From: a virus
Taxonomy: Duplodnaviria; Caudoviricetes
Length of the DNA: 64,000 bases
Reading direction: 5' to 3' (one strand)
IMG/VR virus record: IMGVR_UViG_3300032038_000043
Span: 1 to 64,000 of that record
The notes beneath the pieces were generated by a model. The model saw nothing but the letters and a program-made list of their open reading frames with translations, made no database searches and was not told the origin of the DNA. Of this stretch, positions 20,539 to 28,196 are shown in pieces. Each line of letters begins with the position of its first letter. Position 1 is the stretch's first letter. The translations under genes were made by a program, and so were the position numbers.

Positions 20539-23500
20539 ATGACCAACCCAGCAGACAGGCTCGCGGCGCTGATAGCGACGCCCAAGGAGGAACCAGTCTC
20601 CTACTACAAGGGCGTCGTGCAGCAGACGCAGGGCTCGAAGGCGTACGTCCTCGTCGACGGCGGCATCTCGATGTGGTGCGACGCGATGGATGTGAAGGCC
20701 ATCGCCGGCGACCGCGTGAGGGTCGAGGTGCGCAAGCGCAAGGCGACGCTCGTCGCAAACTACACGCACCCAGTCACCGACGACTCGAAGGCGGGGGAGG
20801 CGCTCGACCTCGCTCAAGTCGCGAAGAACGCCGCAGACGATGCGCAGATTGCCGCTGACAACGCTCAGGACTCAGCCGACGAAGCTGCGGCTGCCGCGCG
20901 GACCGCCCAGGGGAGTGCCGACGATGCGGCCACGGCGGCACAGACTGCTTGGAGCCACGCGGACAACGCTCTCACTGCGGCGGGTGCCGCTTGGGACCAC
21001 GCAGGAGAAGCGGCCTCTGCGGCTCAGAACGCGTGGAATAAAGCTGCCGATGCCGAATCCGCGGCAAACGAGGCTCACTCTCAGGCCGTAAATGCCGCAG
21101 GAGCGGCCCAGGAGGCGTGGGAGCACGCAGACGAGGCGGCTGGCGAGGCTGAGCGGGCGAACCGCATGGCGAACGGCGCTCTGACTGGTCTTGGCACACT
21201 GGAGTCCGTCATCGACACGGTCAACTGGTTCGCCGACCACCGCACGGCATCGACCGACACCACCGTAAACCCAGCCAAGGACTACTACACCTATGACGCG
21301 TCGACCGGTACGCTCTCCAAGGTCGAGCCCGATGGCACAGAGAACCCGTCGACCGAGGGTTGGTGGGAGCTCGATGAGGCGATAAGCAACTATGTCGCGT
21401 CTCACACAGCCATGACGGACGACGGCCTATATGTGGTCGGCCTTTCCAACGGATGGCGTGTTCTCGTTTCGACCGGTGCCGGTGACTACGCGGCGGGCGT
21501 TTTCCTCATCGACCCGAACGGCGTCATCGCGCAGGCGACGACGGGCAACGGCATCACCTTCGATGACTCGCGCCCGTTCCACATCGGCGATGACGACGCG
21601 TACATCGTGTTCGACGGCAACGGCGGCATCGTCATCGGGGGCAACGGAGTCAGCATCTCTGGCGGCGTCACCCTCGGTGGCTACAGCAGGACGCTGTCTC
21701 AGGTGCTCAGCGCCCTCGACGCGAGCATCAGCGCCGTCGAGTACGGCGTCGGCAGCAGCCCGACGTCGCATTCGGACATCACGAGCTGGTCAAGCTCGTC
21801 GCCCACATGGCAACAGGGCAAGTACGTGTGGATGCGCACGACAACCAACGGGCTCACGTACACATACACGTGCATCCAGGGAGCTAAGGGCGAGTCTGGC
21901 GCTGGTGGCGCGAAGGGAGACACCGGTGCCACGGGAGCCACTGGAGCTACGGGACGGACAGGTGCCACCGGTGCAACGGGCGGTACGGGTGCTACGGGCG
22001 CTACGGGCAACACAGGAGCGACTGGTGCCACGGGTGCCACTGGCAATACAGGCGCGACGGGAGATACGGGCCCTCAGGGCGTCAGCGTCACCGTCTCGAG
22101 TGTCAAGTACGGGACGTCATCGAGCGCCTCCGTGGAGCCGTCAAGCTGGTCGACGACCGTGCCGTCCTCAATCGCGAAGGGACGCTGGCTCTGGGTCAAG
22201 ACCACCTACTCCGATTCCACTACCGCGACGACGAAGAGCTACGTCGGCACTGACGGCGAGGATGGAACCTCTGTCTTCGTCCAGAGCAGCTCGAAGGTCG
22301 GCGACACCACCACCGTCGTGATAGCCGACAGCGACGGCAACACCAGCACGCTCACCATCAAGGACGGCAGCGACGGCACTGACGGCACGCCGGGCCTCAC
22401 GGGGTACGTGCACACGGCATGGGCGAACAGCGCGAACGGACAGACCGACTTCTCCACGACGGTGTCCGCTGGCAAGAGCTACCTCGGCGTATACACGGAC
22501 AACACCGCCGCAGACTCGACGAACCCCTCTTCCTACTCGTGGTCGCTCATCAAGGGTGCCACAGGCAGCACCGGCGCTACGGGCAGCACGGGTGCCACCG
22601 GCGCGACAGGAAAGACCGGTGCCACCGGCGCTACAGGTGCCACTGGTCAGACTGGCGCGACCGGCCTCACAGGCGCTACGGGACAGACGGGCAACACCGG
22701 AGCCACCGGACAGACGGGCGCTACTGGTCAGACTGGCAACACGGGCAAGACTGGTGCCACAGGTCAGACTGGTGCCACAGGTGCCACGGGCGCGACCGGA
22801 GCTACGGGTGTCGGCATCGCGTCGATAACCGAGTACTACTGCGTGACCAACTCCACGTCCGTCCCGGCAGACAGCGCGTTCTCGACGGGGGTAAAGACGC
22901 CCACCGCCTCGAACCGCTACCTCTGGAACTACGAGCTTGTCACCTACACCGACTCGTCCACGAAGAAGCTGGACAAGCACATCGCCGCAGTGTTCGGCAA
23001 CACGGGAGCCACCGGCAACACGGGAGACTCCGGCGTAGGCATCACCGACATCATCGACTACTACGCCGTGAACAACTCGACGACCGCACCGGCAGACGCA
23101 GACTTCTCCACCACGGTCCAGAACCCGACAGCATCCAACAGATTCCTGTGGAATTACGAGCTGACCACCTATAGCGATGGCTCGACGAGCACCTCGTACA
23201 AGCGAATCATCGGCGTGTACGGCCAGACGGGAAAGACGGGTGACACAGGTGCCACCGGCCAGACAGGTGCCACCGGGGCAACCGGCCAGACGGGTGCCAC
23301 GGGCAATACGGGCGCTACCGGCCAGACAGGTGCCACAGGTCAGACGGGTGCCACGGGACAGACCGGCAACACGGGAAACACCGGTGCGACCGGACAGACG
23401 GGCGCGACAGGAAAGACCGGCGCTACTGGTGCCACGGGAGCTACGGGTGCCACGGGAGTCGGCATAGCATCCATCACCGAGTACTACTGCATCTCAAACT

Positions 23501-27618: not shown

Positions 27619-28196
27619 AGGTGCTCATAGCCGTACCGACGTTCGAGACCATCTGCCCGGAGACGTTCAAGTCGATTTACGGGCTGCGTGGGTGCGACTA
27701 CCTGCCGCTCTTCGACTTCGTTCGCGGCTACGACTGCGCGAGGGCACGCAACCTCATCTGCAAGGAGGCAATCGACGGGGGATTCGACTACGTCCTGATG
27801 GTCGACTCCGACGTGGTTCTCCCGGACACGACGCTCGAGCACATGCTGTCTGAGCAGAGGCCCGTGACTCTCGGGGTGTACCCACGCAAGGGCACCCAGT
27901 GGGAGACCGAGCTCTTCAAGGTCGGCACCAAAGACTTCGTCGACCGCTTCGCTGTCAGCGAGGTGCCGCCGACCACCTTCGAGGTGAAGGGCGGCGGCAT
28001 GGGCTGCGCCCTCATATCGGTGCCGTTGCTCAGGGACATGGGCAGCGGATGGTTCAAGTACGTGGAGTATCCAAGTGGCGACGTCCTCTCCGAGGACCTG
28101 TACTTCTGCGACAGGGTCTCGAAGATGGGCGCGTCGATAGTGGCCGATGGGCGCGTGCGCTGTGGCCATGCGTGGCGTGAGACGAGGTGGTGCTGA
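27615..28196 (+). CDS. glycosyltransferase, GT-A fold (GT2-like)
   Basis: VLIAVP, ARN, YVLMVDSDV (DxD), GMGCALI, SEDLYFC, CGH; ATGA coupling to the GT8 gene. Confidence 0.85.
   Translation: MKVLIAVPTFETICPETFKSIYGLRGCDYLPLFDFVRGYDCARARNLICKEAIDGGFDYVLMVDSDVVLPDTTLEHMLSEQRPVTLGVYPRKGTQWETELFKVGTKDFVDRFAVSEVPPTTFEVKGGGMGCALISVPLLRDMGSGWFKYVEYPSGDVLSEDLYFCDRVSKMGASIVADGRVRCGHAWRETRWC

Follow-up and report, generated by a model that had tools for sequence, protein, structure and literature searches.

Two glycosyltransferase genes behind a giant Gly-X-Thr collagen fibre gene of a gut phage: a candidate system for virion-protein glycosylation

What do two glycosyltransferases (GTs) act upon when their genes stand inside the tail operon of a phage, immediately behind the gene of a giant collagen-like fibre? 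The question is raised by a tailed phage of IMG/VR (Duplodnaviria; Caudoviricetes; record IMGVR_UViG_3300032038_000043; 93,018 bp with direct terminal repeats, estimated to be complete), whose first 64 kb (64,000 nucleotides, here called the window) were analysed. We consider it probable that the pair O-glycosylates a structural protein of the virion, most likely the threonines of the Gly-X-Thr fibre. Both enzymes are predicted to be soluble, and their genes are co-transcribed and coupled. A preliminary description of this DNA, made from the sequence alone, had proposed a collagen-fibre glycosylation cassette at this locus, and we weigh that proposal below against other acceptors.

The fibre gene begins 2 nt past the end of the previous tail gene, and PHROG tail-fibre families match its product down to E 3e-180. 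An N-terminal anchor of ~447 amino acids (aa) is followed by collagen runs that alternate with globular modules, and then by a C-terminal globular domain that may be Ig-like. The 14 collagen runs (Table 1) hold 238 Gly-X-Y triplets, which amount to 34% of the protein, and the Pfam Collagen model matches 13 stretches (E 3e-78). Thr occupies the Y position in 203 of the 238 triplets (85%) and Lys in 2. The X position is taken by Ala (124), Asn (29), Gln (23), Lys (19) and only four times by Pro. These counts bear out the preliminary description of a tail protein of about 2125 aa with mostly Thr at Y and hardly any Pro. Every Pfam Collagen match in the 93-kb genome falls within this open reading frame (ORF), and the fibre is therefore the only collagen of the phage. 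The internal repeats are 60–79% identical at the DNA level, so the expansion of the fibre must be old; misassembly or recent duplication as the source of its length was ruled out by the same figures. A relative (L021) holds a shorter fibre orthologue of 819 aa, alike at both termini.

Eight globular modules of ~60 aa, here named 'RYLWNYE' modules, lie between the collagen runs, and no Pfam model matches them. Each module has an N-x-S/T sequon and Ser/Thr-rich loops, and the conserved pattern begins with 'I..YY...NST.AP...F.T....'.

The first GT gene starts with GTG behind its own ribosome-binding site. This start is supported by the homologues, which begin at the same residue (K2 is invariant in the alignment). 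A GT8-like gene had been described 12 nt past the fibre, and the assignment was confirmed by Glyco_transf_8 (PF01501), which scores 36.7 bits over a cut-off of 24.3 and is carried by all of the homologues. In an alignment of 17 sequences, a DxD metal site and a C-terminal His, as in the GT-A fold, are invariant, and the AlphaFold model has a confidence score (pLDDT) of 92.6. The best match of this model in the PDB is GlyE (5gvv), followed by LgtC, with UGGT also among the top matches. GlyE is also the best solved GT8 relative by sequence profile (E 2e-9).

The stop codon of the GT8 gene and the start codon of the second GT gene overlap in an ATGA, which indicates translational coupling. This part of the preliminary description stands; its label 'GT2-like' for the second gene does not. 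Glycos_transf_2 (PF00535) reaches 12.5 bits, under its cut-off of 23.3, and the Pfam scan gave only a weak Anp1 hit; a Pfam-level search of the phage genome found no other GT2-type gene either. The structure model (pLDDT 86) instead finds its best match in A197 of Sulfolobus turreted icosahedral virus (STIV; 2c0n), with Z 21.3 and a root-mean-square deviation of 2.0 Å over 167 of 191 residues, at a sequence identity of only 19%. Lower matches are LH3 residues 296–542 (Z 18.7), Mimivirus R699 (17.0), COLGALT1 residues 52–316 (~16.6), Mnn9 (16.3) and generic GT2 enzymes (~15). A197 is also the top PDB hit of the family's sequence profile, at a marginal E of 0.0011 with 52 residues aligned only. 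There the family's 'SEDLYF' lies opposite 'GEDVYF' of A197, and its conserved Glu-Asp appears to match A197 D151, a position found by counting on the assumption that chain and native numbering agree. We refer to this enzyme as the A197-like GT.

No hydrophobic segment was found in either GT, and from their sequences both are soluble enzymes. The ATG of the next tail gene overlaps the stop of the second GT (TGATG), so that the tail genes resume directly after the pair, just as the preliminary description had it. From the start of the fibre to ~35.5 kb no terminator-like or promoter-like site was found on the plus strand, and the fibre and GT genes are co-transcribed.

The company kept by related fibres was examined with the N-terminal anchor of the fibre. 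Its matches in a protein collection were scored for collagen, and their contexts were scanned with both GT profiles; a scan of viral contigs with the same anchor gave one locus only. GT8 and A197-like genes both adjoin the fibres of the window (fraction of Thr at Y 0.85), L021 (0.76) and L355 (0.62). The A197-like GT alone adjoins those of L354 (0.53) and L356 (0.44; directly upstream). No GT is adjacent to the fibres of L357 (0.37), L353 (0.17 in 35 triplets) and L360 (0.15 in 26 triplets), or to those of L358, L359 and L361, which have 0–5 triplets and no real collagen. Thus, a GT is adjacent to five of the six anchor-sharing fibres with Thr-containing collagen and to none of the five others (Fisher p = 0.015). 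The GTs of L354, L355 and L356 fall into subclades different from those of the window GTs, which indicates that homologous fibres have been paired with different versions of the enzymes. The cassette is also kept beside orthologous fibres of differing length in L021/L022 and L355. As a separate observation, the genes of L357 and L360 (ENA SHIW14 scaffolds, GC 0.35–0.37) translate only if TGA is read as Trp.

A wider comparison was made with the A197-like GT loci (181 genes), which were merged at 70% identity into 74 clusters. In 17 of 24 cases a collagen gene is found no more than two genes from the GT, where 5.5 are expected from random placement. In the GT-adjacent collagens, Thr makes up a fraction of 0.38 to 1.0 of the Y positions (median ~0.67). 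As a baseline, IMG/VR was scanned for twelve GGN-N6 repeats without regard to composition, which yielded 79 collagen-like ORFs; among these the median is 0.13, and a value of 0.6 or more is reached by 13 (16%). The difference is significant (Mann-Whitney p = 2.4e-7), and the GT-adjacent collagens also have less Pro and more Ala than the baseline. The same baseline ruled out G-X-T as the ordinary composition of phage collagens. On a tree of 115 GT sequences, collagen adjacency needs at least 4 changes, compared to a mean of ~17 after shuffling. Capsid-adjacent clades lie interspersed among the collagen-adjacent ones, and collagen adjacency is found both in bacterial phages and in Methanobrevibacter viruses. 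The preliminary description had suggested a check for whether GTs accompany G-X-T fibres in related phages and are gone elsewhere, and both comparisons came out in this sense. At the level of sequence comparison, a functional link of these GTs to Thr-rich collagen fibres is well supported.

Both GT families are large. For the A197-like GT, 245 relatives were counted in IMG/VR and 49 loci in the species genomes of GTDB, many of the latter on Methanobrevibacter contigs; a library of 1.84 billion proteins yielded 273 cluster representatives at E <= 1e-30. The GT8 family has more than 334 homologues and 105 IMG/VR loci; these loci were recovered by an alignment-based scan, whereas a single-protein pattern scan of viral contigs for GT8 found nothing, and blastn of the GT region against phage records gave no match. 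Nearly all relatives of both enzymes come from ruminant or other herbivore gut samples. The A197-like GT lies almost always within a virion module. It abuts a collagen-like gene at ~20 viral loci and at most Methanobrevibacter loci, with the fibre upstream of the GT in high-GC phages and downstream in methanogen viruses; at one locus (L040) a coupled GT8–GT pair is flanked by two GAT-collagen genes. The virus or provirus loci of methanogens with a GT near collagen point to a collagen-plus-GT module in archaeal tailed viruses.

A number of side observations were made on these neighbourhoods. On Methanobrevibacter contigs from metagenome-assembled genomes (MAGs; L311–L345, L351) and in L001/L076 (BK063679), the A197-like GT stands one or two genes from short GDT/GAT collagen-like proteins. 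In L008, where the GT follows the capsid gene, a Caps_synth/DXD sugar-transferase-like gene and an NTP_transf_3 nucleotidyltransferase gene lie between portal and scaffold (3901–5216), suggesting a larger head-module sugar cassette in this phage; L010, with the same GT position, has an ORF (L010:1168–1806) that resembles the L008 nucleotidyltransferase in length and start. The GT8 homologues of L150 and L168 are broken into 4–5 consecutive short ORFs under translation table 11, through decay or possibly an alternative code. In one 47-kb phage (L156:10702–16758 and L077) the GT8 and A197-like genes are ~11 kb apart, and the GT8 gene is coupled to that of a 2019-aa Ser/Thr-rich tail protein with only three short non-Thr Gly-X-Y runs.

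Several findings weigh against the fibre as the acceptor. Most commonly, the A197-like GT follows directly on the 3' side of the major capsid gene (~35–40 loci), and at ~35 loci the GT8–GT pair, in either order, stands beside terminase, portal or protease genes. Collagen is absent from the vicinity of most members of both families, and the complete genomes G004, G008, G009 and G010 carry the GT without any collagen. Because of these capsid-adjacent loci and collagen-free genomes the families are not dedicated to collagen, and a family of that kind was rejected as a candidate. Of the cassette in the preliminary description, the functional link thus survives the comparison and the dedication does not, since most relatives stand beside capsid or packaging genes. 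The enzymes clearly have other acceptors. In this phage the target, or a further one, could be the capsid or some other protein of the virion. Furthermore, L357 has a Thr-containing collagen fibre and no GT, and the clustering of collagen-adjacent GTs in few clades means few independent events. Within the fibre itself, the Ser/Thr-rich globular modules could be the true acceptor sites. Lastly, the matched parts of LH3 (296–542) and COLGALT1 (52–316) are accessory or N-terminal domains, distinct from those that carry out catalysis.

The strongest rival explanation is that the capsid is glycosylated and the fibre is not. The pair would then act on a different protein of the virion, for instance that of the major capsid or the tail tube, and its place after the fibre would be an accident of modular shuffling. 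The capsid-gene neighbourhood of the A197-like GT speaks for it, as does the position of the pair, mostly by head and packaging genes in collagen-free phages. It is also consistent with STIV A197, thought to act on the capsid protein, and with the glycosylated capsids of mycobacteriophages (PMC11256854). It does not, however, account for the lineage of the window, where the pair stays by the fibre and not by the capsid gene, or for a collagen adjacency that is three times the random expectation and specific to Thr-rich collagen. The presence of GTs also tracks the collagen content of homologous fibres that share the anchor. We regard this explanation as rather unlikely for the window. A more apt description of the GT families is that of a glycosylation system of the virion module, which on repeated occasions became coupled to collagen fibres rich in Thr.

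The fold matches of the second GT raise another explanation, since the soluble GT-As TarP and RmlT are among them with Z ~15. Like the prophage enzyme TarP, the pair might modify a glycopolymer of the host envelope (wall teichoic acid or capsule) and so block superinfection or re-adsorption to debris. A tyrosine recombinase makes lysogeny possible, and the host is Gram-positive, judging by the CHAP-type endolysin. The TarP-type matches, however, rank well under A197, and the GT genes are embedded in and coupled to the late tail operon, at a distance of ~36 kb from the recombinase and outside any moron or lysogeny module. Host-envelope modification would also leave the associations with Thr-rich collagen and with capsid genes across the relatives unexplained, and we consider it unlikely.

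Glycosylation of the phage DNA as a protection against restriction, as by the T4 glucosyltransferases, is an action often assumed for phage GTs (PMC10202952), and in L017 the GT pair lies near a dUTPase/dCTP-deaminase gene. In the phage studied here, a search of the complete genome found no thymidylate-synthase/hydroxymethylase homologue. The genes belong to the structural operon rather than to a module of DNA metabolism, and no DNA glycosyltransferase is among the fold matches listed. DNA glycosylation is therefore unsupported, the enzyme families being unfitting as well, and we think it very improbable.

For the favoured reading, glycosylation of the fibre, a mechanism can be outlined, in which we infer the acceptor, the order of action and the sugars from the comparisons above. 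Two soluble cytoplasmic GTs would be made from the same late transcript as the fibre and in translational coupling with it. Before the fibre trimer assembles, or while it does so, they would most likely modify the ~200 threonines at Y in this Pro-poor protein. The A197-like GT-A, with its DxD metal site, would be the core enzyme and would probably put the first sugar on the polypeptide, and the retaining GT8 would probably add a second, alpha-linked hexose. That the A197-like GT often stands alone beside collagen suggests such a core role for it, with GT8 as an optional extender. One natural protein of 427 aa (P0178, on a contig that ends upstream of the fusion gene) joins a GT8 domain to an A197-like domain behind it, the same order as in the window, which indicates that the two enzymes act together. 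With the lone A197-like GTs, this fusion and the extension of a protein O-glycan by GlyE, a division into priming and extending is plausible. Other A197-like fusions include GT4-type, GT2 and methyltransferase domains; among 37 long homologues of the A197-like GT no GT–collagen fusion was found. We also observed that, in a 292-kb phage, a 1115-aa fusion of GT4-type, GT2, A197-like and FkbM-methyltransferase domains (L208:1556–4900) adjoins a collagen-like ORF. The benefit to the phage may lie in stabilisation of the triple helix, shielding from proteases or antibodies, mucin mimicry or glycan-mediated adhesion.

A broader proposal, which we put forward tentatively and hold to be speculative, is that the A197-like GT-As form one virus-borne family of virion-protein GTs, spread over gut tailed phages and methanogen viruses and reaching distantly to STIV. 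The gene would travel beside that of its substrate, with repeated switches between capsid and Thr-rich collagen. In the present phage the product might be a mucin-like glyco-collagen, whose ~200 O-glycans would replace the helix-stabilising role of hydroxyproline and serve adhesion or protease resistance in the rumen. There is a precedent in the cuticle collagen of vent worms, in which O-glycosylated Thr at Y stabilises the triple helix. To our knowledge, glycosylation of phage-particle proteins has been demonstrated only for a few mycobacteriophages, in which it alters immune recognition. Should glycosylation of collagen-like fibres prove routine in methanogen viruses and in phages of gut and rumen, this would explain how Gly-X-Thr helices poor in Pro and free of hydroxyproline remain folded, and a glycan layer would be added to host recognition and mucus adherence. 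The long-orphan fold of STIV A197 would gain many tractable relatives with candidate substrates next door, and small soluble enzymes would become available for making glycosylated bacterial collagens. For annotators the locus is a caution that phage GTs should not be assumed to act on DNA or host surfaces.

The setting of the locus is a siphovirus-type late operon on the plus strand (Table 1) of a phage with a GC content of 61% and many tRNAs. The order tape measure, tail proteins and fibre is also found in the relatives L021 and L354. A strong hairpin, the first terminator-like one on the plus strand, falls within the endolysin ORF as listed, so the real start of that gene may be further downstream. 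The CHAP-type endolysin, with its weak choline-binding-repeat match, indicates a Gram-positive host; the GC content, the ruminant-gut relatives and weak links to Coriobacteriia MAGs are further hints to the host.

Table 1. Features of the late operon, the fibre and the GT pair; nucleotide positions are those of the window
Feature	Position	Strand	Remarks
Large terminase	2304-4061	+	Late operon
Portal	4833-6131	+	Late operon
Major capsid	6917-8326	+	Late operon
Tape measure, 1916 aa	11347-17097	+	Upstream of fibre; Pfam/PHROG
Distal tail protein, 793 aa, fn3 domain	17101-19482	+	Upstream of fibre; Pfam/PHROG
Tail protein, 351 aa	19482-20537	+	Directly upstream of fibre; Pfam/PHROG
Tail fibre gene, 2125 aa	20539-26916	+	ATG 20539, stop 26914-26916; Pfam, PHROG
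Fibre collagen runs 1-5	Residues 448-516, 610-624, 673-759, 820-834, 892-975
Fibre collagen runs 6-10	Residues 1036-1050, 1108-1176, 1279-1326, 1430-1483, 1544-1558
Fibre collagen runs 11-14	Residues 1616-1657, 1739-1768, 1830-1856, 1914-2057
Fibre 'RYLWNYE' modules	22900-26300 (residues ~790-1900)
Fibre/GT8 junction	26917-26931	+	AAGGAGG ribosome-binding site 26917-26923, GTG start, 12-nt gap after fibre stop
GT8-family glycosyltransferase, 229 aa, predicted soluble	26929-27618	+	Pfam PF01501
GT8 invariant residues	27214-27222; 27529-27531		D96-x-D98; H201
GT8/second GT junction	27603-27618	+	AAGGAGG ribosome-binding site 27603-27609, ATGA start/stop overlap
A197-like minimal GT-A glycosyltransferase, 193 aa, predicted soluble	27615-28196	+	phrog_1574, E 1.5e-10
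A197-like GT invariant residues	27804-27812; 28092-28097; 28167-28169		D64-x-D66; E160-D161; H185 (alignment)
Next tail protein, ~1190 aa	28196-31768	+	PHROG tail and PblB-type families; tail operon resumes
Downstream tail module	31768-36303	+	Includes 743-aa protein with Listeria-Bacteroides repeats; Pfam
CBM_5_12 protein, two carbohydrate-binding modules	33984-34613	+	Pfam; tail module
CHAP-type endolysin, weak choline-binding-repeat match	35461-36303	+	Both Pfam matches just under cut-offs
Terminator-like hairpin	35511-35530	+	Within endolysin ORF as listed
Tyrosine recombinase	63898-64422		Straddles window end; Pfam Phage_integrase, 75 bits

Full-text literature searches gave no report of phage collagen-fibre glycosylation, and comparison was made with systems that share parts of the arrangement. 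We know of no determined substrate of STIV A197, and STIV, whose capsid is of the double-jelly-roll type, is a crenarchaeal virus without a tail. A197 resembles the second GT in its minimal size, its DxD, its conserved Glu-Asp and its viral origin. Its presumed acceptor is the capsid protein, whereas the candidate acceptor in the phage is a collagen fibre. A197 is essential and is thought to glycosylate the capsid protein, and the D151E mutant delays replication (PMC10551542).

In Che8 and related mycobacteriophages, according to PMC11256854, which cites Freeman et al. 2023, phage GTs glycosylate the phage's own major capsid protein and build a glycan shield, with the GT genes near the 3' end of the genome. 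The likeness to the present locus lies in phage-encoded GTs that act on the phage's own structural proteins, and no collagen substrate is described for them there. Among 50,697 phage records searched by tblastn with both GTs, no Mycobacterium phage was hit.

The pathway of serine-rich-repeat adhesins begins with a GtfA/B primer, which is absent from the phage system. GlyE of S. pneumoniae, a GT8 enzyme like the first GT of the pair, lengthens the O-glycan on PsrP, a serine-rich adhesin (PMC12656782); its target is thus an already O-glycosylated, repetitive, Ser/Thr-rich surface protein. GlyE differs in its low identity to the phage GT8 (~19%), its length of 406 aa and an extra domain.

The collagen-working GT-A proteins LH3, Mimivirus R699 and COLGALT1 are the second to fourth fold matches of the A197-like GT, above generic GT2 enzymes. 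COLGALT1 and LH3 act on hydroxylysine, whereas the phage fibre has Lys at Y in 2 of 238 triplets, and the animal collagen GTs differ in this respect from the phage pair.

In C. difficile, SgtA is encoded beside bclA3 and transfers beta-O-linked N-acetylglucosamine onto Thr of the GPT collagen repeats of BclA3 in a Mn2+-dependent manner (PMC7157674). SgtA/BclA3 and the BclA of Bacillus are like the phage locus in having a GT gene beside a Gly-X-Thr collagen-like gene. They belong to the exosporium, a bacterial spore surface and not a viral one. The BclA3 repeats are Pro-rich GPT, whereas those of the phage fibre are GAT, GNT, GQT and GKT, and the phage enzymes are a minimal GT-A of 193 aa and a GT8. 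By analogy, SgtA/BclA3 would be the best model for how the phage system works.

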